This document shows, piece by piece, positions 1-56,036 of a stretch of 64,000 nucleotides of DNA; the first letter of the stretch is position 1; each line of letters begins with the position of its first letter. The position numbers were made by a program, and so were the translations under genes. The notes under the pieces were generated by a model. It had not been told where the DNA came from. It did not search any database and worked only from the letters and a program-made list of their open reading frames with translations. Source of the stretch: Cyanidioschyzon merolae (Eukaryota); assembly GCA_000091205.1 (NCBI GenBank), contig AP006498.2, one strand, 5' to 3'.

Positions 1-1230
1 GACTCGTTCTCGTCATTGGGAGTGTGTTAGTGTATTCGTTAGTGACCGGACAGGCACCGCGGCGATGGCAGCAAGCGCAAACCTGAATCGATGCCGTCAA
101 ACCGAGCTGCTGGCTCTGCAGGGCACCGCACGGAAGACCAACGACTCTGAGAAAGATGCTGGAGTGCTCCAATGCCGTCGCTTGCGGCTGGTTTCGAAAC
201 GAGCTTTCCACGCGGATCGAGGCGAGGTCTGCAGCGGGGCGGGATGCTCTTTTGCGGAAAGGATGTTACCGCAAGGGTTTTGAGGGCGTCGCTCCAGCCA
301 GGATGCCGGCGGCAAGGGATGGGCGACGAAGGCCACTCGACCATTTTGGGTCGGTTATGAAGTTATGGATGTTGGGGTGCGCCTCGGAGGTATCCCTTTC
401 CCGAGTGGACCTGGACGATTCTCACGTGAACGAGGCACGTTTTCCCTTGAGGGCTACTCCTGCGGCTGGAACGGAACTTGGATTCTGGATGAACCGTGGA
501 CTTTTTCAAGCGATATGAAACGCATCGTCCCGGCTTGCAGATGATCGAGCTGCATACTTCTCGCTTGCCACCGTGCGACTCTACCTGAGGCCGATTCGAG
601 CGAAAACAGCAGCACGCATACTCGACGCAGTGCGCTCTGCTTCGGTAGCTAGTCACTGGCTTCTTTTTATCTAACACGACCGGCTCATGCATAGGACTGA
701 AAGTGACTGGAGCTGGAACGAAAACCGTACGATGGAGTGGATCTCCTGAGCACGTGCCTCCGAGTCCGTTGTGCATTGCTTTGCGTGCTGGCAAACGCCA
801 CCAACAGTTGTCTTGCTGATCAGGCGCAAGAACCGTTGCGGTTGTCCGATTCATCAGCCGCCGGAGAGGTCAAAACTTTGTGGACAATCGCGAGCACTGG
901 CGTCGGGACACACTGGAACACGGCTTGCGCACAGCAGCTAGCTCGACACCGGCAAACAGAACGCGTGTTTGCGACTGCCTCCTTCGATGCGGACAAGTGT
1001 CGTGGTGGTGCGTGGAAGCACCCACTGAGGCAAGCATTCGGTTGAATCCGCTGTTGTGAAACGCGAGTTTCTCTTCTGGTACTCTTTAAAATCGTGGGTA
1101 CACCTCGATGATGCCCGAGGCCATTCTGGTCCAGCAGACGCCGTCCAGTTCAGGTAATCGCTTTTTCTTGCGGATAACGACCGAGCGCGACACCCCGCAC
1201 ACCTGCGATACAAGTGCTTAGCGCAGGCGT

Positions 1231-2325
1231 TTAGAGAGTGTAGCTCACTTGTGCTGAACACTGTGGCAAATTCCTTTCAAAGACAAACAGCGATCGCTTT
1301 GCGCAGGCCACCTGGTACCCGTGGCCTATTCCGCGGAAACGGGGAGCCAGCGTCACCACCCGGCGCTTCCGCGCCTCAAGTAGTTTCCTACCGATGGCAT
1401 TGTAGATTGTGAGTGTGATCGCTGCGAGCGGTGCGAGGTACATGACTCGCGGAACGGAGCCTTTCATGAGCGTTGCCGGACCCTCCTCTGCAATGATGCG
1501 GCGGAAAGTTGGCAGAATGCCGCGATACGTGCCGTCAGCGCCTTGGGTCATCAGACGGGTCTTCACGACATCTACGGGTGTGAGCATTAAGGCCGCAGTT
1601 GCACCTCCTATTGCGGCTAGGACGAGGTTTTCTTGTCGGTTCGGAGCGCGTTTCTGAATCCGTTCGAAAAGGCGCGACTCTTGGAGGAAAAATAGAAAGG
1701 AAAGCGCGTTCCAAGGAACATCACGAGAAACCGTTGCCCAGTAACCACGATATAGGCCACCGAATCCTTCTTTCTGGAGAATGGTGGGCAGCGCGACCCC
1801 GATGTGAGGATATAGATCCGCCTGGATGCGCTGTTTGAGCACTTCTTGCGGCACTCGAATAAAGGATGCTGCGAAAGCGCCGGCAGCTCCGGAGACCAAA
1901 TCCACCACAACCTGTCGCCAGGCATGATTGCGACCAGAAGACGTAACTTTTGTTGACGCTTGTTTGGTATGCGAAGCTGGCGGCAGTAGCAGCTCGGTGA
2001 GGCGTTGTTTGCACCACTCGTACGCAACGAACTGCACGCCGCCCGCTGGCACCGCGAGAACAACCTGCGGTATCACGCCTTTGATAAACACCCGCGGTGA
2101 CCAGTCTCGACGAACACCCCGGGCCTGAAGTCGGGTACGCACCACATCTATTGGGTGCAGCAGGGTCTGCGCAACACCACGAGCCGAGGACCCTGCCAGC
2201 AACTTCTCCGTAAACGTTAGCTGCGAAAGCGCATCAACGCCAGTGGTCGTAGCAGCTCCGGCGCTGACTGCAATGACAGTTCCAGTTGTCTTCGTAAAGG
2301 CGTTTTTATTCTCTTTTGAACTCAT
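1231..2325 (-). CDS. Mitochondrial carrier family protein, S-adenosylmethionine carrier (SAMC)-like
   Basis: 364-aa ORF that starts at a true ATG (cat at 2323-2325). It has three carrier repeats with the P-x-D/E-x-x-K/R signatures: 'HPIDVVRTRLQ', 'RVPQEVLKQRIQ' (SAMC-like 'RVPTEVVKQRMQ') and 'TPVDVVKTRLM'. After the first and third of these come the usual G/aromatic-rich half-repeats ending in 'YE' ('VQFVAYEW') and 'YN' ('LTIYNAI'); the second is followed by 'GLYRGYWATVSRDVPWNALSFLFFLQ'. Confidence 0.75.
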   Translation of the reverse strand: MSSKENKNAFTKTTGTVIAVSAGAATTTGVDALSQLTFTEKLLAGSSARGVAQTLLHPIDVVRTRLQARGVRRDWSPRVFIKGVIPQVVLAVPAGGVQFVAYEWCKQRLTELLLPPASHTKQASTKVTSSGRNHAWRQVVVDLVSGAAGAFAASFIRVPQEVLKQRIQADLYPHIGVALPTILQKEGFGGLYRGYWATVSRDVPWNALSFLFFLQESRLFERIQKRAPNRQENLVLAAIGGATAALMLTPVDVVKTRLMTQGADGTYRGILPTFRRIIAEEGPATLMKGSVPRVMYLAPLAAITLTIYNAIGRKLLEARKRRVVTLAPRFRGIGHGYQVACAKRSLFVFERNLPQCSAQVSYTL

Positions 2326-2645
2326 GGACGTTGTGCGGTCGAGAGTGAGTTCTGGTGTTGCGTGCCGGAGCGAGGCACTGAATTGAACCTATATCGTTTC
2401 GTCCGGTTAGACGCTGAAGAGTACCCTACAGAGCCTCAGTTCAAGTGAATATCCGGTAATACCTAGTTAAAGAAGGCTCAATCGGTTCCAGTAGACACCT
2501 GTTCGAGAAGAGGGATACAATCCGAGCCAAAACTTACGTTCGTACACGTGTACCACAAGAGACTGTAAAACCGCCTTCGAGCCGATGCTCGTAGCGAGCG
2601 CCGCAGGCCACGGCAACCGTTCTGCGGATCGCAGCTGCTCGCGGC

Positions 2646-3736
2646 GATCACCGGCAGCTCCGGATGGAGAATTTCTGATGAAAAGAAACGAAAAGTCGAT
2701 TATGTAGAATACAGAGGCTCCAAACCAGGGATTCCTCCCTCGTACAATCGTTTTGTTGGTTGAATAGAGCTCGGCAGCTCCGGATGGAGAATTTCTGATG
2801 AAAAGAAACGAAAAGTCGATTACGTAGAATACAGAGGCTCCAAACCAGGGATTCCTCGTCATGCAAATCGTTTTGTCGGTAGAATAGAGCTCGGCAGCTC
2901 CGAATGGAGAATTCCTGATGAAAAGAAACGAAAAGTCGATTACGTAGAATACAGAGGCTCCAAACCAGGGATTCCTCCTTCGTACAATCGTTTTGTTGGT
3001 TGAAAAGAGCTCGGCAGCTCCGGATGGAGAATTCCTGATGAAAAGAAACGAAAAGTCGATTATGTAGAATACAGAGGCTCCAGACCAGGGATTCCTCCTT
3101 CGTACAACCGTTTTGTTGGTTGAAAAGAGCTCGGCAGCTCCGGATGGAGAATTCCTGATGAAAAGAAACGAAAAGTCGATTACGTAGAATACAGAGGCTC
3201 CAAACCAGGGATTCCTCCTTCGTACAATCGTTTTGTTGGTTGAAAAGAGCTCGGCAGCTCCGGATGGAGAATTCCTGATGAAAAGAAACGAAAAGTCGAT
3301 TATGTAGAATACAGAGGCTCCAGACCAGGGATTCCTCCTTCGTACAATCGTTTTGTTGGTTGAAAAGAGCTCGGCAGCTCCGGATGGAGAATTCCTGATG
3401 AAAAGAAACGAAAAGTCGATTACGTAGAATACAGAGGCTCCAAACCAGGGATTCCTCCTTCGTACAACCGTTTTGTTGGTTGAAAAGAGCTCGGCAGCTC
3501 CGGATGGAGAATTCCTGATGAAAAGAAACGAAAAGTCGATTACGTAGAATACAGAGGCTCCAGACCAGGGATTCCTCCTTCGTACAATCGTTTTGTTGGT
3601 TGAAAAGAGCTCGGCAGCTCCGGATGGAGAATTCCTGATGAAAAGAAACGAAAAGTCGATTACGTAGAATACAGAGGCTCCAGACCAGGGATTCCTCCTT
3701 CGTACAACCGTTTTGTTGGTTGAATAGAGCTCGGCT
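2646..3736. repeat. Tandem satellite, 120-bp unit x 9 full copies plus a partial one
   Basis: The unit 'cggcagctccggatggagaatt(t/c)ctgatgaaaagaaacgaaaagtcgatta(t/c)gtagaatacagaggctcca(a/g)accagggattcctcc...caa(t/c)cgttttgttggttgaa(a/t)agagct' starts at 2652, 2772, 2892 and so on up to 3612. Copies are about 93-98% identical and the few variable positions recur in a mixed pattern. Confidence 0.95.
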
Positions 3737-5408
3737 GGTAGTGGCCGAGGCTTGCGGGCGCCCTCACAATGCCAGCTTGGATTGACAATTCGCTGAGCTT
3801 GCCGCCGGTATCTTCAGTGCGCCCACCACTCGTGCATAAAGACGCGCCGGTACGCGGCTCTTTCACAGAGCGTTTGCTTGAGCCGACAACCGACAAGGTT
3901 CCGCATAGCCGCTCCGTCTCTGTGAGACAAACGCCGCAGCGGCGTCGCATAGAATGTTGCAGCGGGCGTTCAGGAAAGGCTCTGCACCCGGAAGATCCGC
4001 GATATGGTATTGACCTGACCATTAGTCTGGAGGCAAGTCTGATCTGTGCTTCGTGTAGCGTACATGGATGGAAGGCGGATTGCTGATCCATTTATCGGTT
4101 ACTAAAAGGCATCGAATATCCAGCCGGATTCTGGTGAGATGCATCGTCCTGGAACCTCCGCAGTGTTGAAGGTTTCGATGCGGCGAGCTCCACTGCTCGA
4201 ATGGAAATCGATTACGGGATCTCTTTGTCTAGACATGTCTCATACACGTTGACGTACATATGCAGTCTATATGCTCTAAAGTTCTCCCATTTTGTTGCGT
4301 GCTTTCGCGATCGACACGTCGGTACTCGTTGGCGCCATTTAAGGCACTAGTCGCACCGGAAGCGCGCATGTCGGCACGAGGGATCCCTGCGGTGGCACGG
4401 CACGAAAACGCCATCACTAGCACTCTGCAGCGTCCCACGTGAAGGCATCTGCATCGAGACGAAAAAAGCGAAAGTTTATTCAAAGGCGAGCGACTGAATC
4501 ATGACTAGAGCAGCTGGATGACAACTCTGTGGTGACAGATCTTCTGGAAGCGACCGTGTCACCGAGAGCCCATTCAAGGCATCCAAAGACAGGTGCAGGT
4601 GATATGCTGTCCAATGACTTGGCCGGCTTCGCGAGGACTCGTGCTCAAGGTTGCATTGCCCGCGCCGCGTTGCCGAGAAACGCTCACAGTCCACAGGATA
4701 CCGAGCGTAAAGCAGGACTTGAAACGGCGATTGTTCGCGACAGAAGATCACAGCCTTGGGTATCAAAAAGACCAATATCGCCGAACGGTATTGCAGAGGA
4801 TGTTCACGTGCGTCTGTTCGCCAGACGATGCCGTGGATGTTTGTGCGCAGCGACCCGCGCAAAATGACAGAAGCGTCAGGGAGCATCCACATTGGTGTCA
4901 GATTGAAATGGAATACCGACCTGCTCGCTCAGTTCGTGGCTTGCGCATCTCTTCTGAAATATTTGCCGATGTACAGCCTCGATACTACAAGTGCAGATAT
5001 ATGGGCTTGCCGAATCATGCGTAGATTTCGGTTTCGTGGTCGTCTAGTCGCAGGAGCTCCCATGCTGCTCTGTCGCTGGAATTCGTGACGTCTCCGATAC
5101 CAAGATCATCATTCGCGACGCCCTCGAGCAGTGCCGCTTAAAGGAACCGATAGCATCATCCACTTCATACCTGCAAGCCTCCACTCGTCTCCTTTTCGTA
5201 TATGTAGCACGCTAAAAATCGAGCATTCTTCAAGTTTTCGATGGATCCGTTCCAAGACACCACTCGTGGACGCAGCGAATCGCGCTTCATGCGGGACGTG
5301 CGGCTCACGCGGACTCTATGCTGCACACTTGGTCTTCATGCTGCGTCGTTTGTGCTTTTATGCACCAGCTCAACAAGGCTCTAAATAGAGACCTGCATTC
5401 TCTGCGGG

Positions 5409-7757: not shown

Positions 7758-8964
7758 TACGAGGCTGTGTACACGCGACGACTGCGGCGACCTCGCTGCG
7801 AAAAGGGCGTCACTGGGGTGCTCGTGTATATCGCTCCTGCCAGTCAACCGAGTGCAATCGTTTGGAGCGATTTGCTCGTAAGCCTAAGCGGCAGAGTCGC
7901 CAGCACTTACCGGGCATGCGGTATGAGATGGGTCAGCACCCTGGCTACGGCAGTTGATCCTAGCACATGTTCACTGCTTCCACCACCTGGGAACTAGCTT
8001 CAGACACGGTGTAGAGCGGTGGCTCCGGCACCGAAGTCTACAGTGGTCACAGTGTCTGCAGGCGTCGTGGGTTAAACTCGGAGCCGTGCGTTCCGCAGAA
8101 CGCCTGCAACATCATGCACTTTTTGCATGTACTTGTGTGTTTCTCGCAGTTACTCCATAAAAGGAATCTATCCTTTAGATTGGAGAGAGGTCGCTGAAAG
8201 ACTGTAGGATGTCGCTGCCCGCATGCGAACAAGCGGCCTGGCATTTAAATGTGCGTCATTCTACGGTCAGCAGGTGGATGAAGTACGCTTCATGTAGTCA
8301 TGAGCGAGAATGTCGTGCACCCAAAATGGATCCTATGAAACTCTACGTAAAAGAATGTGTCCTGCATGTGCGTGGCAGGCAGCAGCAAGGCGCGCATGCG
8401 CTCAAGTTCGGGCTGCCCACGGAGGAGGTAATGTAAAGGTACTTGAGGAATCGAAGATGCGTACGTAGGGCAGGCGAGGCTCAGTCCCAACGTTTTCCCA
8501 GAGCGTCTGAATCCCATAAAACGGATATCCAGTATCTCAACAACATCTGTGTCACTTTGGCGGGTGAAGAAGAAAGCTAGCAAGATGGAGAAGGAGAAGG
8601 AATTTTCAGAAAAGTGAACAACGAGGGACAGGAAGGAAGATTTGTTTGAGCGGGAAGAACAGCCTGGAACCGGTGTCAAGAACCCTCTACTGAATCAAAG
8701 ATATTGGGAGCATCCTCCGAAACGTGAGGTGCATGGCATCATTGCGAGCCGTTGAGCTGCTCACTCGAGGAAGGCTCGTCCGGCTTCCCGCGCCTCGGCA
8801 CACCTCGTCAACCAACTGTTCGCATGCGTTGCGGACGTAGGGCTGCCAGCTTTACACATTTCTCCGGAATTTTCTCATCAAGTTTTCGTGCGTCAAGTGA
8901 CGCTCGGGACAGAAGATGCAAAACGACCTGATTCTCCAGAGGTCGGTATCATCGAGTTCCGAGC

Positions 8965-9657
8965 ATGATGAACGCCACGAGGCACACCAACAAGTGGGAT
9001 GATGGCGTCAGGACTCATCTCGATGCACTGAAAACCGAATCGAGGAGAGCCGTACGCTCTGTACGCTTCATTCAGAGCGTAAATGAGCGACCAAATGCCG
9101 CATGCGTACGATGCTTGGCAGGAGTTCATGAGATCGTGCTGGGTGGCGATCGGTTGCGGTTGCTCGATGGCAAGGAACATGCATTCGTTGTCTTATTCAA
9201 TAAGCTGGAAAAGGAAGTCCCCGAAAATTTGCGTCGTTCAGTGACAGACTATAGCTCTGGACGTGCGGTGACGCTCAGGGGCTGCACTCTTGCTCCTTTG
9301 ACCAGAGTGTACCAAGAGTGGAGGAATCGATTCCGCAAGATTTCCATCGATGCGTTCAGGACGCCATACACGCACCACGAGCACTTGTGCATGCTGGAAG
9401 AGGAAGAGAAGAAGCGAACAGTGAAACAGAGCTGGATGCACGAGATTGCGAAGGGCACGCTGATCGAGCATCAGATGGCGATGCAGTTGAAGATGAGAGG
9501 CTTGCTATGGTGTGATTCGACCAGAGACCATGCGCACAAGCGCCTTCTCCCGCGATACTTGAACGCCTCGATCAGTATTCGGAAATGTCTCGTACTTTTG
9601 GAGCTTTCGGCGGATTGGTTTCGAGCGATTTTTTCGAGAAAACTGTTTCGTACTTAA
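8965..9657 (+). pseudogene. Degenerate fragment of a TnpB/Fanzor-like nuclease (zinc-finger to RuvC-III region)
   Basis: The translation '...YQEWRNRFRKISIDAFRTPYTHHEHLCMLEEEEKK...MRGLLWCDSTRDHAHKRLLPRYLNASISIRK' is collinear with the C-terminus of the 39-41 kb copy ('IPIDEFRTSYTHHELGCTLQRVEMEK...VRGLLALVRTTNGKKRIEFVNRDFNAAINVR'). The RuvC-III Asp is lost. The segment is AT-richer than its flanks. Confidence 0.45.
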
Positions 9658-15948: not shown

Positions 15949-18900
15949 TGCGATAAGCTCGTTGAACAGAAGAGACTTGTTTCTTGAAACGAATTGCGTA
16001 TGCGTCACGCACTTTGCGTGATCGTTGCAGCGTAAATTTTTAGCGTCAGACTTGTAACGTACGCTTCCGTTGGCAGCGTCAACCGGAACGTCGAATTCCA
16101 ACGAGAACGACTCCGTTCGATAACCAGCGCACTTTCGTCTTGAATGAGGTTACCTGTCCTTCACGAAATGAAGACGAAGCTGTTCAGTACGCCAGTCGCG
16201 CTGGACGTCCTCGAACTGACTGCGTTTTGCTGCGGTCTGTGAACACCAGATGCACGCGTCACCCACAAACACACACGAAGAGTGATGTTCAGGTCAAGCG
16301 CCGCTGGTACAGTGATCGATGCGCGGACGCCGTCATGCCCCGCCGTGTCGCCGTTTTTCGGGTGATCCGCGGATGGCGTCGCTGGAGGGTATGTCCGTCT
16401 ATATATGTCGCATTTGTTTTGTTTCATCGAACGTAGACACAGCGGAGACCAGCGATCCCCGATTGCGGGATGCGCTCCGGCATTCGGGAAAGCATCCATC
16501 ATGCTTCACACTACGTTCAAGTTCCTCTACCGATACGTTCCCCTCGAGGGTACTGGTTATTGCTCAAGTTCTATCGTGCGCCGAGTGTGTGCCTCGGGCG
16601 CCCGCGTTCGCGTCCATAGCGCCAGTGCGGATACAAGGTGACGACAGAAAAGCTTTTCCGTACGGGGATCGGATGATGGCATCGCATGCCATGGCAGAGC
16701 ATCGCTCGGGTCGCTGATGGGCATTCTCAATGCTGGAGATCCATTATGGTGGAGCTAGAACTTTGGCAGGTCCGTCGTTCAATTCCAATCTGGAGGCTGG
16801 TAAAGCGCTCACTGGGTCTAGGGAGAGCGCGATGAAGCATATGCGTCGGAGGCTAGCGAAGTGGATGGAATCCCCGTGTAAGACGAGTCTCTCCCTAGCG
16901 TGCGAGCAATGCGGTCAAGCGCGTCGCCATATGCCTCTGGAATCCACTTGCCGCAGAGCGTGGGACGTGAATCTGGCGTGGATTTCGTGAAAATCACCGG
17001 AAAACCGGATGCAATGATGTATCTAGAGTTTTGCCCTGATCTGCACCACCTGCATGACGCGTACAGGTGCGCACCGATCTCAGCGTTCACATGCGAGGCG
17101 GGCTACGTGCTGCGCATCCTGCAAACAGGGCAGAGGTGCAGCGAGAAGTCGCTGCTTGTGGTCTTTTGTCGCTGATGGGATAACGCATGTGCAACATGCT
17201 TGCTTGACGCGTCGCTTTCCGTGCAGCACGCAAATCGAACGAGCTCTACTTGGCATCGCATTCACGTACATACGTGGTCCGTACCGAGCGGTGGAAACGT
17301 GGAATGTCTCTGTTTCATGATGCTGCTCAATACAGCGATGCGCTGCCTCGGATCCTTGAGAAGCACCTGGGCACTCGACGCACTTGCGGCATCGCCATAT
17401 CACCTCCAGACAAGTATGTGATGTTCTGGAAGCATGTTTTCGGGTTGTGACGGGCGCAAAGTCATGGTCATGGGACGCAACAGGCACATCTTTTCCGCAA
17501 TTTGCGTGATATCATTGAAGAAGAAATCATAAGGAAAACGAGTCTGTTGGGCGCTGACGAGGCGTGGTGCTCGCGGCCCCAGCGACAGTGGCTTGGGACT
17601 CGTTTAGGGTAGTCTTGCATCCAAGCCAGTCACTTGTTTTCGCAAGTTTCAGATATATCATGAAATGTCGAGAAACTTGCTCCAGCACTGCGTGAAGCGT
17701 CGCACACCGGCCGCACGAAAAGCATCCGCTCTGGACGTTAGCCCTGCGGGCTATGCCCGTGTCTGATAAAAATTAGAAGCTGAAACGCTCGCCCTCCCCT
17801 GTCTTGCCATTTTTTCGAACTTTATTTTAGATCTTCACACTCGACATTCCAAGACCAGTAATTCGAGCTTACCGTGCTCGTACGTAATTTTAAGTGTTCT
17901 CGGTCGTGGTTTCCAAGTGGCCCCTCGCCGCGGTGCCGCTGGGATTCGTTGCGTCATCCGAATCAAGATGATTCGCGACGCGTTCGAACCAGGGTCCGTA
18001 AACTAAGTGATATCATCATCCAGTCCATGCCTGCAAGCCTCTACGCTGCTCCTTTCCTCGTGTATAGCATCGCCACATAAAGTATTCTTCATTGTTTCAA
18101 TGCTTCTTTTCCAGGGTAACTCGTGTGCGCAGAAATTCGCGTCGCTGGATTGAAATGCGAAAAAGTACTCGAGGTCGAGCCTTATCATCTTGTTCACAGG
18201 CTGATGCCGAGCGTTTAATGAATTTGCCACGTCAAGTAATCGATTCCGATCGAAAGACGGATGGTCCTCTCCTGGTGGCTGCCAACGAAAGAGAATTCCA
18301 CCATAGAAGCACGATGCTTCTTACAGAACATGCCCCTATAGGCGCCCGTCTCTTCTGTTTATATGGATAAGGGTCTTGGGCTCGTAGATAAGTCCCGGCA
18401 GCGATCGCTTTGAGTGGAGCGTGCGTCACCGCTTTGAATGAAAGGAGTGTATACCGGGCGGAATTTCTCGACTTGTTCTGTAGCCTGGATTTTTCGTTCG
18501 ATGCTTATTTCATGAAAGACAGCATCGTGCACCAAAAATCCCGTGTCAAATGGAACAACATGTGTTTGTGTATGCAGCGGACAGCGTACTCGCCCAGTGA
18601 ATAGCCTAGAAAAAAATCCGTGATCCTAAGCGACGGCGTCGGGCGAGGAAACAGAAGAGTGCATCGAAAGGAGCCTTCTGCACCCTTCGAGGGCATGCAC
18701 TGAGTGATGAAACATGTATCCCCATGGCATAATATGCGCCCGCGGAAGAAAGCGTTTGGTTATAGACGTGGCGGAGCAGCCGAACACAGCCCGGTGTCAC
18801 CGCTCCGAAGCGCGCACCGATGCAGCATACAAAGAAGATGAAAAGGGTAAACTATACGTGGATCGCAACTTCCGCCTGTACATCAAATGCAGCGGCAACA

Positions 18901-19599
18901 GCCGAAAGCAATAAAATCGGTGCTTCAACGTAGCTATCAACATTTCTTCGACCGCTGACCACGGTGTTGAAACAGAAAAAGCGTTCAGCATATTCAAAGC
19001 CCGAGACCAGAGACGGGAAACCGGAGCAGTCCCAAAAAAGCATGCAAAGGCTGGTGTTGATGTCTGTTGGAAGAGACCAAAACTTGAACGTGTTCGAGCG
19101 TGTCAGTGTACCTATTGCATTTTCTTCGAACATGAGCGTAGCGCACACCCTGTGGCGCATGCGCCATACCCAGATCCGCTCCGAGTAGACGGACGTCGAG
19201 GCGCTGCACAGTCACTCTGGCTTCAGAAGCAGCGGCAGTGGAGGAGCTTTTACCACCACAGCGAGAACCTGCGATAGGCTCGGCACCCGAAAGACCACCA
19301 AACTGATTGAACCTCTATTTTTAGATGAGAATCCGTTCTTAAATGGATACAGCATCACGGTATTCCAAGCAGAGCTGTTGAATGGTGCCTGGCGATCGTC
19401 AGCAGTCGCGTACTCGGTAGCATCCGCTTCGATGCATCCGTCCTTCTCCATCAAAAACAGCGCGGATGGAGCCGGCCGGACTACGGAGAATGGATCGAAC
19501 TAGTATCTGTTCTTGCGAGTGAAAACTAATATCCACGCGTAGACACCTCGCAGGCTTTTTCGACCTGCCCCCAGGTATCGGTTTCGGCGTCTCCCTGAA

Positions 19600-19800
19600 C
19601 ACTTCATGCAGCAGAGGCCGGCCCACAAAGTCAGATCACGTCAGCTCCGCAGGTCTCGTCTTCAGCGCTAGACGTCGTCTGATATTGATGACGGTGTACA
19701 AGTCTCGGTTCACGAAGTCCATGCATGCATTGCCGCTGGTTGACCGCCTCAGTGTAAGGATTCCTCAAACTCTTGCCCTCTGCGCCTCTGCAGTCTCGTC
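19600..19800 (-). mobile_element. Short remnant of the TnpB/Fanzor-like element (RuvC-III region)
   Basis: The reverse complement of 19673-19790 translates to '...ILTLRRSTSGNACMDFVNRDLYTVINIRRR'. This matches 'ALVRTTNGKKRIEFVNRDFNAAINVRS' of the 39 kb copy. It shares the string 'cgtcgtctgatattga' with the 54.7 kb copy. It lies in a low-GC, gene-poor island. Confidence 0.4.
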
Positions 19801-20398
19801 ATCGTTCCGTCGGCCAAAAACGTTTCCTCGCTTGTCTTCCTTCTTTTTCTTCGACATTTGCTCTTCTTCGCTCGATGGTAAAGGACAAGAGGATTTTTTC
19901 GTTTCTTTTCGGGTACCCGGCAACACCGAGCCTCAAGGATCCGCGATTTTGCATGTCCATACCTTTCCCTTGGTCTTTTCATTTCTTCAAAATGAACGCA
20001 CTTCCAACGCTTCTGCTATAGACCGCAAAAAAAAGCACTTGAATCCACGCACCTGGGGAATGCAACACAGTTGAGCTGAAATACTAGAGAAATCGCAGCG
20101 TTGCGCCACCAGCGGATCCCGTACTCACTGAACGGAGGCCTATCTAGTCAGCAACTCGTCGATTGTCCAGGCTTCTGGACTGAGGTAATAAACGCTTCGA
20201 AGGTAGACGCGCTGAACGCTCCTCAGGTTCCGGAAACAGAGCCGGCGTTCTGGCGAGACACTGGGACTCACTGAGCCCACTTGCGCTCAGGGAAGCCGCC
20301 TCGTGAACAGACGTTCCATAGGGGACAACCTGGTGCGCACAAGGACGCACCTGGTGTCGCGTCTGGTTGTCGACGTTTTCGCGTAAGGAACTGAGGTC

Positions 20399-29869: not shown

Positions 29870-32736
29870 TGCGATAGCGCTGTATTTCAAGTTGAATCCC
29901 GCGCAGGGTTTGTTTCAGTAATCCTTAGATTGTGGAAGCTTGCGGGGCGCTTCTGCCCAGAAAACAGAATTTTCCAGGAAGAAGAATTTTTCTCTTGAAC
30001 ACGGCCACACTGTCTGTGCCGCGGTTTCGCGACGCGCACGTGCATCTCTCGCGCCGCATTATTGGTGCATCTGACAGCGGATCGGCGGGGATTGTTTGCC
30101 GCGCCCTGAGCTGGACGAGCGCTGGAAGAGTCGAAATTTTGCAATGCGGTGATGGCGGGAGTGCGGTTGCGGCGTTTCGGGCGCATTTGCCACAGCGGCA
30201 TCGCGAGAGAATCGTCGAAGAGCTCCGAGCCCATGAGGGACGCATGAGACGGTGGAGGGTGTTTCGATTGTAAGACGCTACACGAAGATTCTACGAGCGT
30301 ATGGTTACGCAAAGCAGGGAGCGTTGCTGTTTTCTAGGGTCGTACGATCTAACGTTACACGCCCTAAGGGATACACGGCAGCAATTGATTGGATAAACAA
30401 GTTGTATTGGTACACTGCGTGACTCTGGTCTCGCGTTATGCACAACGTTCCCTAAGATATATCCGTGTTGATAACGTCTACCACAGATACTTTCACCCTG
30501 CGAGCACAGCAGCGTGCAGAGGCCTGATGGAGTGAACCTTTCGGGTGCGATGCACGGGACACAGTGCCTCACCGCTGCGTTACGACGGCCGGCTCTTAGC
30601 TGAAAGAGGAAGCTCGAGTTCCTTCTCTGCGAACGCCGTATTGGAAGCACCGCGGGACGAACGATACTTGCACAAAACACTGTATGGACAAGAGCACCGC
30701 AGGCGGACTACACTGGCTCCGAGCGCTCGGCTGGAGGCGAGCTCGTGGTTCTTCCGAGTGCTGCGTCGCGGCGAGAGGCCTCCAGAAGCGACGCGCGCTC
30801 GCAGCGACGACTGCCTCGAGCTGATGCCCGCCAGATAGTTGCCAGCCCAGTCAGCCTCCGGGCGAGCAAAGCGGCAGCTACGCATCCAGGGTCGGAGGGT
30901 GCGTCTGCTGTAGGCTCGGTACCGAGAGGAACGACGCCCATATCAGAAAAAATGGAACGGGACGACGAACTCTGGTGAACACAGAAAAGTTTGTGTGTCT
31001 TCTTATTGCCAACAAAAACATCTTTTGCAGGCTTTTCTAAGACTGTTTCCTCTTTCTCTGTTGTCTCTGGTTTTAACTGGGCCGCTCTCTGCTTTCCCTG
31101 CAGCACGGTTTTCAGGAATTGTTGGGTGATGATGGTAGCGTTCCAGGTCACTATTTCCCCGCATCCGAGTGTTTTCTACGCATTTGACGTGGAGCCGGAA
31201 GTTGCGATGTATGCTTCGCCTTCCATGTTATTCTTTTTTCTGAACAGTCACCGTGGGCGATGCCCATCAGCGACATTTGACTTTGCTCAGGTGATCCCAT
31301 ACGTCCACCATGCTTCCTCGTCCTCCAAGTGCAGCCCTGTCGCGCATAAACGCTTGCTTTATCGCTCCGTGCGTGCCCCTTTCTGGCACACCAGGTCCCG
31401 ATCGATGCATTCCTCCGTTTCCGCGCCCGGTACCATATCCCATTATCAAGCGCTTCTTCGGTGCGATCTCCTCGGCGAGTGCGCTGTTCGTTGCATGCAG
31501 ATGCGCATGCTATCCCAGCCGATAGACGATAATTCGAAAGCGACATTCTCCATGATGAAACAAGTACCGGAAGGAAAATCAAGACTGGAGACGGTCTAGA
31601 AAATTTCGACCGGTCTACGCTTCCTTCACGGAAAGCGGTGACGCACTATCAACTGCAAGCGATCGCTGCGATGATTCAAGTCCAAGATCAAGGGCCTTTT
31701 CCATGGAAAGACAAGATACAGGAGCCCCTGGGTGCACATCCCACGAGAGGTATTACGCTGCTGTCGAGTGCCGCACGTTTAAAACCCTCAAAGAGAGGAG
31801 GATTCGGCTTTCAAACAGAATAGATTACTTGACCTGACAAGTTCAGTAAACGCTCGGCATGAGCTTGTGAACAAGTCGCCAAAGGACAGCGTCGAGATTA
31901 TGTGCTGTCGCCAGTTCAGCATCCCGCAGTACTGCCTCAACAATTTGCCGTGAGACCAAAGGAATCGAAAGCTTGAAGAATGCTTGATTTGAGCATGCTA
32001 CACTTAAGAAGCAAGATGCGTCGAGGCTTGGACGAATGAACGGGATGAGGTTATCGTTTATTTTACGAACGCTCGCTCGAAGGCAAAGGGAATCCTCTCT
32101 ACTCTTGTCAAATAACGAACTTCCGCGGCAAACTGTCGAAAAGGGCCACTCCGGAAACACCACCGTGAATCCTAAAACGACGCATGAGTCCACGAGCACC
32201 TATTGCCGCAATTAGAAAGCAGTGGCTGTATATCTCAAAATGTTAGAAAACATATCAAAAGGCAGGGACGGAGCGAACGGTTCAGTGTTCCGTTTTAAGC
32301 TGACACGGCGATATGTCGCTGGGTCAAACCTCAGCTCGCGACCAGAAGACTGCACGGGAGCCCCTGAGACGGACAGGCGTCTGCTGGAGCACGACGGTCT
32401 CGTTACGTGCCTTCGACAGCGCCAAGGCATCGCTGCCATCTGGTCAGCTTCGTCGATCTAATACCAAAAAGAGACAGCGACACTGATTCCATACATGTTT
32501 GCCTTCTCATGCACCCGTGCGGATACAATAACGCTGTAGTGCATCTGCCTTGCGTATACGTGGCAGGCACAAAAGTCTCAGCGCCGCTTCCAGCGCGCTG
32601 TAATGTGTGGTGGCTGTTGCGTCGCCCGTCGTCGGTGGCGGTCGATCCCGCAGCCGCTATCTCGCGGTCAAGCGAATGCTAAGCCTGGACCTTGTAGGAG
32701 CGTGGCGTCGTTTTTTCAAGTGAGGGAACGCGTTTG

Positions 32737-35980: not shown

Positions 35981-36185
35981 CAAAACAATGCACCGAAAAC
36001 GATCGCGTGATGGAAAAGCAACCTGGGAGAGGAGGCGCACATGCCGAAAACAATGCACCGAAAACAATCGCATGATGATAAACCTCCCCAAGAAAGGAGG
36101 CACACGTGCCGAAAACAATTTACCCAAAGCGATCGCGTGATCATAGACCTCCCCAAGAAGGAAGGCACACGTGCGCAATGCTGCC
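35981..36185. repeat. Tandem repeat, about 65-bp unit x 3
   Basis: Three successive copies of 'cgaaaacaatgcaccgaaaac(g/a)atcgc(g/a)tgatg...cc(t/c)ccccaagaa(a)gga(a)ggc(g)cacatgc'. Confidence 0.7.
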
Positions 36186-38428: not shown

Positions 38429-39205
38429 TTACGACGGCTTCCACTTGATACTACATCCGATGCTCGGCAGTTGATTTTCCGGAGGTGACTGTCCATTCAC
38501 GCATAACTGGATGGCGTTCCGGAGGTCCTCACCTGTCACAGGAATATCGTTTCCGGGTCTACTGCCGTCCAAACGCCCCCTATAGAACAGCTTGCGCTCG
38601 TGATCCAGAAGGTAAAAGTCGGGCGTGCACGCGGCTTTCCAGCCACGAGCAACATCCTGTGTTTCATCGTAGAGAATCGGAAACTGATAGCGACGCGTTT
38701 TGATTTCCTCCGCCATACGCTCCGGTGCGTCGTCCGGGTGTGTTCCGACAAAGTTACTGCTGATGCCAACCATTTTCACCGGGCCAAACTTTCCAGAACT
38801 AATATCTGCACTCAACCGAGAGAGCTCGCCAGCAATGTGCTTCACAAAAGGACAGTGCGCAGCCAAGAACACCACAACGAGGGCTTTCGGCGGCGGACTG
38901 TCCGCGTAGAGCGAATCGAGAGACACGATTTCTCCTGTAGTTACGTCGGGTAAAGCAAACGCCGGCATAACCGTGCCGAGTTCAACCATAGCAGACTCCG
39001 TACGAACCATTTGAAGCTGTTGAAACGTGCTTCTAGCAGACGGCAAGCGCGTACCCCGGCTGACTCGTCGCGCAGTGCGAGCTTCGCTCCGCACAGACGC
39101 TGTTCGTCGTCCCCGAACAAGGCCTTGGCTCACTGGCCTTGTCGTCGTAAGCCTAGGTGCTAGCAAGAACCCCAAGTATCCCTTGACGCATGCAGTGGCT
39201 CGCAT
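38429..39205 (-). CDS. Thioredoxin-fold redoxin (AhpC/TSA/TlpA-like) with an N-terminal organellar transit peptide
   Basis: Thioredoxin-like core 'FALPDVTTGEIVSLDSLYADSPPPKALVVVFLAAHCPFVKHIAGELSRL' (CP-F active-site region) ... 'YQFPILYDETQDVARGWKAACTPDFYLLDHERKLFYRGRLD'. It is preceded by an Arg/Ser/Thr-rich presequence 'MRATACVKGYLGFLLAPRLTTTRPVSQGLVRGRRTASVRSEARTARRVSRGTRLPSA'. The track ORF starts at TTG 39220; the first ATG is 39205. Later ATGs at 39010 and 38989 are possible if the upstream part is junk derived from the transposon. Confidence 0.55.
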   Translation of the reverse strand: MRATACVKGYLGFLLAPRLTTTRPVSQGLVRGRRTASVRSEARTARRVSRGTRLPSARSTFQQLQMVRTESAMVELGTVMPAFALPDVTTGEIVSLDSLYADSPPPKALVVVFLAAHCPFVKHIAGELSRLSADISSGKFGPVKMVGISSNFVGTHPDDAPERMAEEIKTRRYQFPILYDETQDVARGWKAACTPDFYLLDHERKLFYRGRLDGSRPGNDIPVTGEDLRNAIQLCVNGQSPPENQLPSIGCSIKWKPS

Positions 39206-41381
39206 GCGCTCCAGTTGCAAATGCTTCTGGCGGCACAGTCGAGACGCTGCGGTCGGCAGTACAGTAGTGGCGAGAAACCCGCCGTAAACACGACGTCTGC
39301 CACTGACGTGCAGACGCCTCCCAGCCTTTCTCGACCGGCACCCACTACTGCTTCCAACTTCTTCTCATATAATTCCACTTTTAGAGGTTGTCCAATAAAG
39401 TTCACTCTTGTGGACCTTCGGGGTCTTTTCTCGAGCACTGCAGATCTTACATTGATCGCAGCATTGAAGTCACGATTCACAAACTCAATCCGTTTCTTTC
39501 CGTTGGTTGTACGTACTAATGCAAGTAGTCCACGAACTTTCGCCATCTTTTTCATTTGCTCTTCCGTCAGCGGTCCGTATTTTTTTATATCCTCAGGGTT
39601 CCGCTGACACTTTTCCATCTCCACTCTCTGAAGTGTACAACCCAGTTCATGGTGTGTATAAGACGTTCGAAACTCATCTATCGGTATCATAACGAAACGC
39701 CGTGTACACTCCTTGTACGTTCTTGTCGTTGGAGCTGGCGTAGTTCCTTTTTGGGTCTTCCAACGCCCTGCTCAGTATGCCACAACGAGCCTCTGACTTT
39801 GATCCTCTTTGAAGGCACTCAACTGATTGAAAAATTCGCGAATGCACGCTGCTTACCACAGTATAGCTTCATTCGCAAACGAGCCCACCGGGGCTTTGTA
39901 TACTCCTCCCACAGCGGCTTCCAGTGAGCAACAGGAACTTCCATGATTTTCCGAAAAGCATCAAAGTCCGCTCCTCGGCTCGTCACCTCGCTCAAAGTTT
40001 CCAGGTGCTCTTTCATTCCTGAATTGCAAGTCTCGATGTTCTTCGTCGTATTCAATATACGGGATTCTCGGTAATATCTCGCTCTCGAGAACCTCAACAG
40101 ACGCATGTCTTTCTGAAGTAAGTTGCCGTCAGTACGAGCTTCCGCACTCCTGGGTACTGCGATGGTAATGATGTTAGTGCTCCCGGGGTCCGCGCCAACG
40201 ACAAAGTCGTTATCCTGCACTTTCTGTGTGGCAGGATCCGAATCCTTCTTTTCATCATGCTTCGCCGCGTCAACGACATGGTCGTTATCCTGCACCTCCT
40301 GTGTCGCAGGATCCGCCTCCTTCTCATATTCATGGTTCGCCGAGGGCGGAACTGGACGACCTTTCTTCAACAGCCGATAGTTTACACACTAGGCTACTCC
40401 ATCGGTTTCGATGATCCCAGTGAATACCTTTTGCTTGCTCACTTTGAGACGTTTGAAATCGAAGATATTCTTCCAGTGCGTCTCCCGGTTTTCACCGGAG
40501 AATTCCTCCCTGTTGACACTGAACTCCGGACTGATCTCCTTCATGATGCCGTGAAGGATTCTGGAGTCGATAGTCATAAAAAGTGACTTGATGTTGCACA
40601 TTGGAACCATGTTGAACCGCTTCCCCATTAGGACAGCCTTCCGTCTCTCCCACTCTTCATTGCTTTCCTCACTCAGCTTCATCTCTGCCTTGGGATCGAG
40701 CTCTCGGTCCAAAAACAGGAAATAGCGCAGGACGAGGCGATAGTATCTTTCCTTATCTTTTTTCAACTCTGATACGTTCTCTGCTGGATTCGCAAACCCT
40801 AGTACCGCACGATGCTCTTGTATAACCGCACGCATTACAGAAGCTTCATTCGTGAACTAGTTTGACGCTTTCTTGTCAACGAATTCGACCTCATCTTCAC
40901 GCTTACGATCTTTCGTGACGCCATTGATAATCGCACATTTCCCATTGCGAGATAGGCCCAGGTAGAGTGCAACCACGGCGCGTATCATGAAACGTTCGAG
41001 GTTCGTTGTCAAATGGTTCTTCAGGTTCGTGATGCACTTCATCGCCCCATAGTCGTAAATATCCCGGTCACCCCTGTATCAAATACCGTTGGAGATGTAA
41101 AAGGAGTATTTTTGGCAGAGGGCGTGCACTCGCTCATTTTCCGTCCGCGTTCCCCCTGTGCCAAGCATCAGGTGACGAATAAAGGTCGTGTCGAACAACT
41201 CGTCTGGAACCTCGACTGTTTCCATGTGCGTCACGTCTTCATACATCTCCCTCGCCAAATGCATCAGTCCTGACGACGCCTTGACAAAACTCTTGGAGTA
41301 CGAATCGACACGGTTTCTGATAGCGTCTCGCAACTTTTCCTTGTACGGATTTTTGATATGTTTAAGAAGACCGGCTTTCAC
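39160..41381 (-). mobile_element. Decayed TnpB/Fanzor-like (OMEGA-family RuvC nuclease) gene, most complete copy of a dispersed family
   Basis: Five consecutive minus-strand ORFs in shifting frames: 41079-41381, 40857-41042, 40389-40835, 39819-40370 and 39160-39690. Together they carry a RuvC-I-like '[17 protein letters not shown]', the zinc-finger-region block 'IPIDEFRTSYTHHELGCTLQRVEMEKC', and RuvC-III 'IEFVNRDFNAAINVRSAV'. The interval is visibly AT-richer than the neighbouring genes. Three further fragments of the family occur in the window. Confidence 0.55.
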
Positions 41382-42511
41382 CCCCGTCTCGTCGCACAGT
41401 TGTCTTTCGCGCAGCTTTTGACGTCGGGCCTACCCCTTTTGCTTCTACTTCTTTTCCTGCTCTTCTGGACTCGGATTTTTTTTTGTTTTTTTCTGGCAGC
41501 CGGCGACACTGGGCCTCCAGGATCGTCGACTAGCTTTTTCATAACTCTCCTTTTTTAGTTTTTTTAAAAAGAACGCTCTTTGAACCCTTCTGTTATGTAC
41601 TGCGAAAAAGCACTTGACTAGACTTGTTTGAGGGTTGAAACATAATTGATCTGAAAACTATACTTTGCTACGACTTAAAAGCAAATGCAACTTGTACGTT
41701 AGAACAACAAGTCGACGAATGATCATGATCGCGTTTCCATGCAAAGGCGAGTTGCACGCCGTATCTCTTGCGGCCCTGATCTCCAAGAAGCGCTATCCAC
41801 CGCACTATTTAGAAAAAAGAACATAAACCAACCCCTAACTAGCAACGAAATAATAATTTCTTTCCGTCTCTACTGTAAACGATAAAAGGGCGAAAAGATT
41901 TCCATATTGTGGAAAGTTTAGCTTGTCTGCGGAAGGTCCCTCGAGCCAGACGAGTCTGCAAGCCTGGTGCCCGGTGTGCCTCTAACGTGGCTGATGCCGC
42001 TGCAATGCCTGCGTATCTCGTCTCCAAAGCGGCTTATTCTGGGACTAGAGGCAGTTATGCTGCGTCTGGACGTCATCCTGTTCGCGGTGGACTCCTAGTA
42101 TGTTGATTCGCGCTGCCGCAGGCAGTACGTATGTCTGCGCAGCTTGCTGGCTCCCAGAGTCATTATGCACTCGGAGTCCAAGTCAGCTGAACGACGCTTC
42201 GAGCCAATGCCCTCACTGGTATGGCAAAGCTATTTTGTCTCTATGATGCATCCGCTCCAGTAGTTTAGGCACTACGGCGGGTGCTCACGGTAGGTACTCG
42301 GCGCAAGTTAGAACGCACGAAACGACCAGTATATCCGAGAGGACGTATGGGTAATGGAACGTTAAGGCGGGGTACAGCACGATGGACACTTTTTCGATAA
42401 CCAATATTCATCCTGCAATCTGGGATCCATGGCCAATGTACGCGAATTATGTCATCGAAAAAAATTGGACATGCGCCCGCCATCGGCCTTGTGGCTCTCC
42501 TGATGGCAATG

Positions 42512-42680
42512 TCGCCTCTATGGGATACTACAATCGATGCTCGCCTCTATAGGATACTACAATCGATACTCGCCTATATGGGATACTACAATCGATACTC
42601 GCCTCTATGGGATACTACAATCGATACTCGCATCTGATGATGCTACAGTCGATGTGCGCCTCTGATGATGCCGTGCACGC
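42512..42680. repeat. Tandem repeat, 29-bp unit x about 5.5
   Basis: 'tcgcctctatgggatactacaatcgat(g/a)c' repeats at 42512, 42541, 42570 and 42599, then degenerates into 'tcgcatctgatgatgctacagtcgatgtgcgcctctgatgatgc'. Confidence 0.8.
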
Positions 42681-54635: not shown

Positions 54636-54986
54636 TCAATCCAGCGGCTGTTTGGATATCGTACGCGGCGAGCGCAATCGCTGTGGTGTCGATACCATCA
54701 CCGCCATTTTCGCGAATATATTTTTTGGGACTGAACGTCGTCTGATATTGAGGGCTACGTTGAAGTCTCGGCTGATGAACTCCCTGGGTTTATTGTCTCT
54801 GATGGAACTCACCAGTACATGGAGTTCCCCAATTGGTGCGCGCTGAGCGAATTGGCACCCTGTTAGCGCTTCGTGCTTTTCCATGGCCCAGGCGCTCCGC
54901 TGGCTTTTCTCCATCTCGACCTTCTGAAGTGTACACCCGAGTTCATCCCATAGCTTTTTTATTTCTTCAAATGAACACGCTTGCAC
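54636..54986 (-). mobile_element. Fragment of the TnpB/Fanzor-like element (zinc-finger to RuvC-III region)
   Basis: The minus-strand ORF translates to 'EEIKKLWDELGCTLQKVEMEKSQR...REFISRDFNVALNIRRR'. The coding nucleotides 'gaactcgggtgtacacttcagaaggtcgagatggagaaaag' are about 85% identical to 'gaactgggttgtacacttcagagagtggagatggaaaag' in the 39.6 kb copy. Confidence 0.45.
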
Positions 54987-56036
54987 ATGACCTCAGGTGA
55001 GGACATTCGCTGAGCCGGCAAGACTTGTGGGATGAAGACGAAATGTGCCCCGGTGTGTCACCGTGTGCTGAACGCTTCAGCGATTCCTCCAGTGGAGCGT
55101 TCATACCGTTTTAAGATGGAAAACGCTCCTTTGATGCGGTTGAACCGCAGAACATACAAAGGAATGAAAAGCAGCTCTATCCCGATAGATCAGGCAAAAG
55201 CTCCAACGCGTAGGGAATGGTGCAGTACCACGTCGTCTAATAGACGGACATCACCAGACGTCAGCGGACAGTCTTCAATGTTTCGACAAAGTCATTGGTG
55301 CTGTTGTCTGTGAACTCTCTACGAGCGAAACTGAGGTAGCCAAATGAATCCACTGCAGTTAGAACATTTAATGACGTCTTAGCTCTCCTCGAGTTCAATC
55401 GCGCACACAACGGGCTCCCTCTCCGCGAATACCAATATACGCTCCGGCCGTTTTATTCGAAGGACGTCTGATCGGCTGAAAAGAACAAACCGACATCCCT
55501 GTACTCTATACAGATCGCAACCTTCCAGGAACATAGTCGTTCTGATTTCCATGGAAGATGGCTGTGCTTGAACTAGGACCCTTTTTTAAGACTCTCTCCC
55601 ACAGGTTTCAGCACCACGAGAATGAGCTATTCAGAAACAGAGAGGCCCGTGGTTGCTAATATCGTCGCTTTGGCTTTCCGCAAGTTGATCAACGGGTCGT
55701 TTTCTACCGTTGACTTCAAGCAGTTACCGAGAATACCGGTGTTTGACGCAGAGCGCATCTACTTGTTTCTTTCAGTATTCCTCAACCATCTGAGTACTGC
55801 GACGTGACTGACCTAAACCAGAAACGCAGTCCTCCCTCAACTGTTCAGTGAAGAATAGATCCTACAGGCATTCTTCTACGATCTATTTTCGGTATATTGC
55901 ATCGTGGTGTCGATCTCCGGCGCACCAGCGTAGCCCCTGTGGAACAGAACTGAGTTGAAGGCCACCAGCGGCACGTGCTGCGATCGCACTGCCCGCCTGC
56001 ACGCGCTGGAGCTCGGCGATCCACATCTGGAAGAAC

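Follow-up and report, generated by a model that had tools for sequence, protein, structure and literature searches.

Four regions of the window, by which is meant the whole stretch of 64,000 nucleotides analysed here, are very probably dead remnants of DNA transposons that carried Fanzor1. According to this reading, which we hold with high confidence, the copy at 39-42 kb is CMe-1A, the copy at 19.5 kb comes from the same lineage, the piece at 54.7 kb is the tail of a mariner-type element and the copy at 8.6 kb lies nearer to a second Fanzor1 lineage. Judged by its sequence, no copy in the window appears to be still active. The family was already described in 2013, so that its finding here is the rediscovery of a published repeat family and as given adds little. 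The linkage of transposase and Fanzor remnants in this genome is a new point beyond that description, and it is relevant to the mode of movement of Fanzor1 elements and to the question of which of their parts is retained. The features recognised are the following.

3854..4146 (-): weak second 5'-end fragment, consensus 24-281 (nhmmer E 1.2e-6)
8169..8358 (+): possible helix-turn-helix remnant of a DDE_3 (Tc1/mariner-type) transposase, weak (profile iE 0.003)
8627..8944 (+): N-terminal remnant, about aa 40-140, of the old Fanzor1 copy to which the next feature also belongs (tblastn)
8881..9657 (+): C-terminal Fanzor1 remnant, about aa 413-697, containing the open ORF 8965-9657 of 230 aa (tblastn, nhmmer)
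16446..16678 (+): 5'-end fragment of CMe-1A or TE-N2_CMe, consensus 21-255 (nhmmer E 6.3e-28)
19531..20088 (-): internally deleted copy of the CMe-1A lineage (nhmmer E 6.9e-29 and 1.8e-25)
39222..42457 (-): full-length CMe-1A element, Fanzor1 pseudogene (blastn, nhmmer, global alignment)
54722..54947 (-): C-terminal Fanzor1 remnant, about aa 612-684, SRDFNVALNIRRR (nhmmer consensus 2736-2964, E 8.8e-25)
55061..55917 (-): Tc1/mariner-type DDE_3 transposase pseudogene (tblastn, Pfam, profile)

Setting of the window

From the letter in the CMP locus tags we take the window to be chromosome 16 of Cyanidioschyzon merolae 10D. Three of its genes encode proteins identical to BAM81721.1 (XPD), BAM81738.1 (GMC oxidoreductase) and BAM81740.1 (CYME_CMP089C). 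The GC content is 51-60% and long ORFs are separated by short spacers. Contigs about 99% identical to the window are held in the JGI and ENA metagenomes, and the locus L066, which comes from a syntenic 86-kb contig, showed no overlap with it. All Fanzor-related remnants are intergenic and about 10% of the window is covered by them. Several kinds of remnants are found in the intergenic DNA, and a second repeat family in the window gives DDE_3 signals that are weak, though colinear.

With a C. merolae genome that we assume to be about 16.5 Mb, the published number of about 150 copies leads to an expectation of about 0.6 CMe-1A copies per 64 kb. The three to four clear copies in the window correspond to a Poisson p of 0.02 to 0.003, a comparison in which the nhmmer and profile detection is more sensitive than the published count, so that these values speak neither for nor against a high density of copies in a transposon-tolerant region.

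Homology among the regions

Homology was demonstrated with a conceptual protein rebuilt from the copy at 39-41.5 kb, which was used as tblastn query within the window. It matched 8932-9594 (34% over 223 aa, E 9e-25), 54944-54741 (47% over 68 aa, E 2e-12) and 19776-19567 (37% over 70 aa, E 2e-8). In addition, the published CMe-1A consensus found these places by nhmmer with E values of 2.7e-24 (8.9 kb), 8.8e-25 (54.7 kb) and 1.8e-25 (19.6 kb). A preliminary description of this DNA had proposed that the four regions are related, and this was borne out by protein and profile E values of 1e-8 to 1e-39 in a search space of 64 kb. Chance or low-complexity matches between short motifs picked by eye have next to no probability against such values, although blastn shows little self-similarity of the DNA itself, with no more than 86-98 nt aligned at 70-76%; chance similarity was refuted by the tblastn and nhmmer statistics.

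The three peptide strings quoted in that description are all present, in ORF 8965-9657, at 19.6-19.8 kb (-) and in ORF 54636-54986 (-). Likewise the 16-mer CGTCGTCTGATATTGA, reported as common to two copies, occurs exactly twice, at 19673 and 54736, with a chance expectation of 0.02. The figure of about 85% nucleotide identity between the copies at 39.6 and 54.9 kb proved too high, the measured value being 75.6% over 86 nt (blastn) or 73%. The count of at least four copies stood, two further 5' fragments having been overlooked at 16446-16678 and, more weakly, at 3854-4146. The copies were correctly located and their extents were incomplete, as the 8.9 kb copy begins at about 8627 and the 19.6 kb copy reaches 20088.

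Assignment to Fanzor1

On its sequence, the window family is assigned to Fanzor1 and is a predicted nuclease family. Intact relatives occur in metagenomes at 60-80% identity, for example P0001 (752 aa), and a second lineage (lineage B; P0048 and P0049) at 37-39% identity; there are also distant Haematococcus proteins. An exhaustive profile search gave 3852 relatives at E <= 1e-3. When a profile of 44 relatives was compared with the whole PDB (E <= 10), exactly three matches were obtained, all of them Fanzor1, from Parasitella (9cf0, E 1.9e-21), Spizellomyces (8gkh, 1.1e-13) and Guillardia (9cer, 3.1e-10), which agrees with the earlier label "Fanzor-like". TnpB and Cas12 chains in the PDB gave no match to this profile even at E <= 10. 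Searches of the PDB with a single sequence or with a 14-sequence profile returned nothing relevant, and only the 44-sequence profile reached Fanzor1. With Pfam, neither the rebuilt protein nor the 230-aa ORF nor the intact homologues that were scanned had a match, PF26935 (DUF8286) being outside the scanned set, and PF07282 (Cas12f1-like TNB domain) was matched by 10 of the 44 relatives. An AlphaFold2 prediction of P0001 from a 14-row alignment had a pLDDT of 36.6 and was unusable as a model.

The RuvC residues D, E and D are invariant in all 44 relatives (D484, E656), and the P and G of DPG are nearly so. The RuvC-I "DPG" motif is a Fanzor feature (Yoon et al. 2023, PMC10711439); it is present in the 39-42 kb copy and its region is deleted in the other three. 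None of the 44 relatives has two CxxC motifs in the interval from RuvC-II to RuvC-III, where a CxxC...CxxC zinc finger would be expected, its first CxxC lying six residues after the Glu; they therefore represent a finger-less Fanzor1 clade. At the position of the finger, CMe-1 shows THHELGC...C together with a conserved RGLL(W)C. Since a zinc finger is carried by "many" Fanzors (PMC10711439), and not by all, this makes the group a variant clade and does not exclude it from Fanzor1, to whose published set CMe-1 belongs (Bao & Jurka, PMC3627910).

The CMe-1 clade comprises thousands of Fanzor1 relatives that lack the customary zinc finger. Fanzor1 is the homologue of TnpB in eukaryotes. Characterised members cut DNA as endonucleases under the guidance of an omega RNA (PMC10432273, PMC10530073), and the intact, recently mobile members in environmental algae are candidates for tests of RNA-guided cleavage.

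The large copy and CMe-1A

A single Fanzor1 family, CMe-1A, has been described in C. merolae, with about 150 copies (Bao & Jurka 2013, Mobile DNA 4:12, PMC3627910). Its copies are about 80% identical to a consensus of about 3 kb, and it has a Fanzor1 ORF of 734 aa, no terminal inverted repeats and no transposase, its transposon class having been left undetermined in 2013 (PMC3627910). TE-N2_CMe is a non-autonomous relative of 635 bp with about 70 copies (PMC3627910). The 3169-bp CMe-1A consensus and the 734-aa CMe-1 protein used here were taken from the supplement of the same paper (PMC3627910). The idea that the window holds an old, once-active family agrees with this published description of CMe-1A in C. 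merolae.

Membership of the large copy in CMe-1A was established at the nucleotide level. By blastn, consensus positions 1-2196 and 2117-3152 match it at 84-86%, the nhmmer span is 42456-39241 (-), and the global identity is 85.4% (K2P 0.16). It consists of about 0.9 kb of non-coding DNA at the 5' end, the Fanzor1 ORF and a 3' tail. Decay is evident in the ORF, which has three in-frame stops and two frameshifts, and a 75-bp tandem duplication is found at 40190-40339, just before RuvC-I. The RuvC D/E/D motifs can nevertheless still be read (GADPGSTN, IDEFRTS, NRDFNAAINV).

The 5' end at 42457 corresponds to consensus position 1, and the alignment extends over consensus 1-3155, the last 15 nt or so of the consensus being poorly matched. 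Consequently, of the earlier statement that all copies are truncated and mutated, only the second part applies to this copy, which covers consensus position 1 to at least 3155. Forty distinct insertion sites, when aligned, showed conservation of at least 80% as far as ...GACTTTTGAAAGGCG, with which the consensus ends; further on it collapsed. The 3' terminus is therefore common to the CMe-1A family. We infer from this alignment that the 3' end of the large copy lies at about 39222.

The copy at 19.5-20.1 kb and the 5' fragments

In this copy two adjoining segments, 20088-19800 and 19810-19531 (-), join consensus 786-1048 to consensus 2809-3092. The 5' UTR and the first codons are kept, followed by the RuvC-III region and the tail. 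The two parts are 71% and 66% identical to the consensus (K2P 0.37 and 0.46), and CMe-1 matched the copy by tblastn with 49% over 83 aa (E 2e-15). It retains the NRD motif (NRDLYTVINI), lacks the RuvC-II block and contains stops. With its identity of 66-71%, this copy is an older relative of CMe-1A, as is the 54.7 kb piece (70%).

Of the two 5'-end fragments, the one at 16446-16678 gave 74.7% over 217 nt by blastn (K2P 0.32) and the one at 3854-4146 an identity of 56% to the consensus (K2P 0.67).

The region at 8.2-9.66 kb

The copy at 8.6-9.66 kb appears to be the oldest of the four, a twice-deleted Fanzor1 remnant that is predicted from its sequence to be catalytically dead. Its C-terminal part, 8881-9657, matched P0048 (38% over 255 aa, E 3e-39) and CMe-1 (35% over 240 aa, E 7e-30) by tblastn, and at the nucleotide level 8930-9644 (+) was aligned with consensus 2293-3007 by nhmmer only (E 2.7e-24), with an identity of 51% and a K2P of 0.81. 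The N-terminal part, 8627-8944, is in another frame and has one stop inside, about 280 codons between the two parts being deleted. It was matched by P0048 (aa 38-131, 33%, E 6e-10), P0049 (aa 42-144, 35%, E 2e-9) and CMe-1 (aa 40-134, 28%, E 4e-5). The whole copy scores 147 bits against P0048, of the second Fanzor1 lineage, and 119 bits against CMe-1, and it retains the ancestral RGLLWCDST motif, which is replaced in CMe-1.

The RuvC-I region of this copy is deleted. Moreover, in ORF 8965-9657 Ala stands in place of the RuvC-II Glu (IDAFRT instead of DEF) and Tyr in place of the RuvC-III Asp (PRYLNASISIRK; PRYLNASISI at 9.55 kb); this NRD to PRY change confirms the loss of the RuvC-III Asp noticed earlier in the 9.6 kb copy.

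ORF 8965-9657 is open in 10D only. In three environmental sister-strain contigs, which are 99% identical, a stop is found at codon 71. The ORF differs from the sister strains at 6 of 693 nt (0.87%) and three of the six differences change the protein, whereas the adjacent XPD gene differs at 3 of 2349 nt (0.13%), all silent, so that the density of substitutions in the ORF is about 7 times that in XPD. The stop in the sister strains and this density argue therefore for a pseudogene and not for a domesticated gene. The exact protein was absent from a collection of 15 billion proteins, and the ORF has therefore been annotated by nobody.

That the ORF is a domesticated, functional host gene, possibly for a nuclease-dead protein binding RNA or DNA, is very improbable. 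Lost catalytic residues would be expected in a dead nuclease, and 230 codons have stayed open in DNA of 51% GC despite an identity of only 35-38% to intact relatives. However, the codon-71 stop in three strains, the ratio of non-silent differences (three of six, against none of three in XPD), the N-terminal two-thirds being deleted or out of frame and the absence of the exact protein from the collection all speak for a decayed transposon remnant.

Upstream on the same strand, the segment 8169-8358 was recognised by a profile of 111 DDE_3 transposases (hmm 22-64, iE 0.003 for the whole window in six frames), and a second colinear piece spans hmm 2-25. By tblastn alone its E value was 0.77, and a Pfam scan of it gave no match. 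The copy at 8.6-9.66 kb may thus follow a DDE_3 remnant.

Linkage of a DDE_3 transposase with the Fanzor tail at 54.7-55.9 kb

The Fanzor fragment 54722-54947 is 70% identical to the consensus (K2P 0.40) and was matched by CMe-1 with 57.5% over 73 aa (tblastn, E 1e-16). It starts just past the RuvC-II Glu and keeps the RuvC-III Asp (SRDFNVALNI). A DDE_3 pseudogene lies 115-156 bp upstream of it on the same strand, and the two are thus physically linked. The translation of 55061-55917 reached 35.9 bits against PF13358 DDE_3 (E 8e-9; cut-off 28.6 bits), and the profile of 111 DDE_3 sequences matched it with iE values of 3.9e-30 and 1.3e-15. By tblastn, the transposase of the environmental contig L007 matched 55869-55103 (-) with an E value of 4e-22. 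The pseudogene is interrupted by many stops and by one frameshift. Of its three catalytic residues, the first two, both Asp, can be read (FFSADQTSF, LLDDV), and Lys has replaced the third, acidic one (NRIKG).

The pair aligns as a single block with the environmental copy L090 (71% over 985 nt), and also with L094, L073 and L018. L090, the best environmental DDE_3 copy, is likewise a pseudogene. A search for terminal inverted repeats (TIR) and TA duplications on either side of the window remnants at 8 kb and 55 kb, and of four old DDE_3 copies from the environment, yielded nothing consistent, which may be explained by decay.

In lineage B the P0049 gene is placed just downstream of a DDE_3 (PF13358) gene. 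The segment 734-4376 of L007 is 3643 bp long and has TIRs of 28-30 bp, TA flanks, a DDE_3 gene and an intact Fanzor1 gene of 699 aa. The same 3643-bp block was found at four different insertion sites, in four contigs, with 98.5-99.9% identity and unrelated flanks. By these features it is a young Tc1/mariner-type element that carries a transposase and Fanzor1. In addition, the metagenome contigs were scanned for an 18-mer of the CMe-1A tail, which gave 120 loci; Fanzor remnants are present in 103 and DDE_3 remnants in 30 of them. About 18 environmental Cyanidioschyzon loci have a DDE_3 followed by a Fanzor remnant on the same strand.

The DDE_3 and Fanzor pieces at 54.7-55.9 kb could also be two unrelated insertions side by side that were never one element in this lineage, which we regard as unlikely. 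No terminal repeats frame the pair, and with several kinds of remnants in the intergenic regions of the window a nested "graveyard" insertion is conceivable. However, order, strand and spacing are the same in the roughly 18 environmental loci, the pair forms one aligned block with each of the four copies named above, and precisely the same layout is seen in the young element, whose terminal repeats are intact. On these alignments, the 54.7 kb fragment is interpreted as the Fanzor-derived tail of a Tc1/mariner-type element.

Ages of the copies

The preliminary description regarded the regions as copies of one element left by a single old burst and decayed in place, which is decidedly improbable. 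The Fanzor1 C-terminal region is indeed present in all four, and for three of them CMe-1 is a closer match than the second lineage. However, the divergence from the consensus shows a five-fold spread (K2P 0.16, 0.37-0.46, 0.40 and 0.81), and copies of such different age speak against one burst of one element. Moreover the 8.9 kb copy favours lineage B (147 vs 119 bits) and keeps RGLLWCDST, and the 54.7 kb piece comes with a DDE_3 pseudogene for which CMe-1A has no counterpart. "Copies of the same element" was therefore too simple a phrase: the common C-terminal region stands, and the divergence, the second lineage and the DDE_3 attachment do not fit it. The earlier interpretation as a whole was partly supported, the kind of element having been recognised correctly and several details mistaken.

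Origin of CMe-1A

The four regions are best read as remnants of several Fanzor1-carrying transposons of different age, and the adjacency of Fanzor and transposase remnants suggests that CMe-1A itself may descend from mariner-Fanzor1 composites. Given the Fanzor1 homology, the active ancestors would have encoded an RNA-guided nuclease beside a DDE_3 transposase. The ancestral autonomous element would have had the layout DDE_3 transposase then Fanzor1 and would have moved by cut-and-paste at TA sites, its persistence possibly aided by the Fanzor1/omega-RNA nuclease. CMe-1A would be a derivative that arose after loss of the transposase. The tails of the DDE_3-Fanzor elements match CMe-1A consensus 898-968 and 2840-3092 at 70-78%. 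A DDE_3 remnant was sought in the CMe-1A consensus and in L005 and none was found. With no DDE_3 trace in the consensus and no recognisable terminal repeats around the old copies, its descent from a mariner-Fanzor1 composite is an inference.

The reading that joins these points is about evenly balanced between acceptance and doubt. CMe-1A would be a transposase-less offshoot of Fanzor1-carrying Tc1/mariner-type (DDE_3) elements, within the zinc-finger-less clade. A sister family in Cyanidioschyzon genomes would have kept the transposase, its Fanzor gene being reduced to the first 20 or so codons and the last 250 nt or so. Both families would have the same 3' tail, with the 18-mer conserved exactly and a hairpin that spans the stop codon. 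As this tail is common to both, it may be the tail and not the Fanzor protein that is required in cis, as a transposon end or as an omega-RNA gene.

An omega RNA of a Fanzor1 element would be expected at its 3' end. The last 225 nt of the CMe-1A consensus can form a long hairpin that spans the stop codon, with better folding than shuffled sequences (z -2.5), of which 4 in 200 did equally well. The hairpin is conserved in three copies without covariation, and folding of the 3' region of the lineage-B element of L007 gave a z of 0.0. The hairpin may be an omega-RNA or a transposon-end structure.

Comparison with known systems

To a repeat family that is ordinary and already described, the analysis makes two minor additions, the linkage with a transposase and the clade without a zinc finger. 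Like CMe-1A, the copy at 39222-42457 is colinear with the 3169-bp consensus at 85% and has neither transposase nor TIR, and the copy at 19.5-20.1 kb and the two 5' fragments are also CMe-1A or TE-N2_CMe. In contrast, the 8.9 kb copy falls outside the family, with 51% nucleotide identity and a closer resemblance to another lineage, and the 54.7 kb piece (70%) differs from CMe-1A in being joined to a DDE_3 transposase pseudogene.

Fanzor1 is known from several kinds of transposon, among them Mariner, hAT and Helitron (PMC3627910, PMC10711439). PUl-1 of Pythium ultimum is a mariner/Tc1-borne Fanzor1 element of 3620 bp with 24-bp TIRs and a TA duplication (PMC3627910). The L007 element is of the same type, with a DDE transposase followed by Fanzor1 in one short element, and the remnants at 55 kb and 8 kb in the window have the same gene order and strand. 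Unlike PUl-1, the window copies are decayed, internally deleted and without recognisable terminal repeats.

To SpuFz1 (8gkh), PpFz1 (9cf0) and GtFz1 (9cer) (Saito et al. 2023, PMC10432273) the profile aligns from REC/WED to RuvC, with DPG, DEFRTS and NRDxNAAxNI in register. The CMe-1 clade, whose nuclease activity is predicted, differs from them in having no zinc finger. Finally, the window family resembles bacterial TnpB (IS200/IS605, IS607) in its split RuvC D-E-D nuclease, in being a transposon passenger and in a presumed RNA-guided role in persistence, whereas its host is a eukaryotic nucleus and its partner transposase is DDE_3 rather than TnpA.

A Tc1/mariner-type element with Fanzor1 cargo

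A young Tc1/mariner-type element of 3643 bp occupies four distinct insertion sites in contigs from metagenomes, whose GC content is about 46%.
L007 734-4376, with further copies in L006, L008 and L009: Tc1/mariner-type element, 3643 bp
The L007 copy has terminal inverted repeats of 28-30 bp with TA flanks and carries both a DDE_3 transposase and an intact Fanzor1 of 699 amino acids. This element is a candidate for activity tests.

The window itself contains a second dispersed repeat family, whose three copies are 65-76% identical over at most 709 nt.
4969-5284, + strand: second repeat family, copy
17923-19128, + strand: second repeat family, copy
30944-32141, - strand: second repeat family, copy
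The DDE_3 transposase profile matches these copies weakly but colinearly, at profile positions 1-84 in the first, 41-103 and 147-227 in the second, and 53-102 and 154-226 in the third. The family probably represents more Tc1/mariner remnants.

The 3' end of CMe-1A and its neighbour gene

The 3' end of CMe-1A can form a long imperfect hairpin, CAGTAGTGGGTG...CGCCACTACTG, which has the Fanzor stop codon within its span, folds better than shuffled sequences (z -2.5) and is kept in three copies.
39250-39350 (approximate), - strand: hairpin, CMe-1A consensus 3040-3140
An exact 18-mer of this hairpin, GGGAGGCGTCTGCACGTC, is also present in the DDE_3-linked elements (environmental Cyanidioschyzon loci with a DDE_3 remnant followed by a Fanzor remnant on the same strand), these loci having been chosen by that 18-mer.

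The full-length copy has its 3' end at 39222, where it touches the upstream end of an AhpC/TSA-like (peroxiredoxin family) reading frame, and thus fills the immediate 5' flank of that gene.
38429-39220, - strand: AhpC/TSA-like reading frame

Tandem repeats

Several tandem repeats were found in the window. The 120-nt array adjoins a weak CMe-1A 5' fragment (3854-4146), and the 29-nt repeats begin 26 nt beyond the 5' end of the full-length copy.
2532-3791: 120-nt unit, about 10 copies, 92-94% identity
23099-23226: 60-nt repeat pair, 97% identical, spacing 68 nt
35982-36176: short tandem repeat, 65-nt unit, 3 copies
42483-42656: 29-nt unit, 5-6 tandem copies
47912-48202: short tandem repeat, 77-nt unit, at least 3 copies

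The Fanzor1 reading frame also contains a 75-bp (25-codon) tandem repeat, directly ahead of the RuvC-I motif.
40190-40339 in the window and 4221-4450 in L005: 75-bp tandem repeat
Its number differs, with one unit in the published consensus, two in the window copy and four in P0001/L005, an environmental copy.

The region between RuvC-II and RuvC-III

Among the 44 Fanzor1 relatives aligned with the window copy, the CxxC...CxxC zinc finger is absent clade-wide from the region between RuvC-II and RuvC-III. A conserved RGLLWCxST stands in its place, and on the CMe-1 branch this motif is altered to RGLLALVST.
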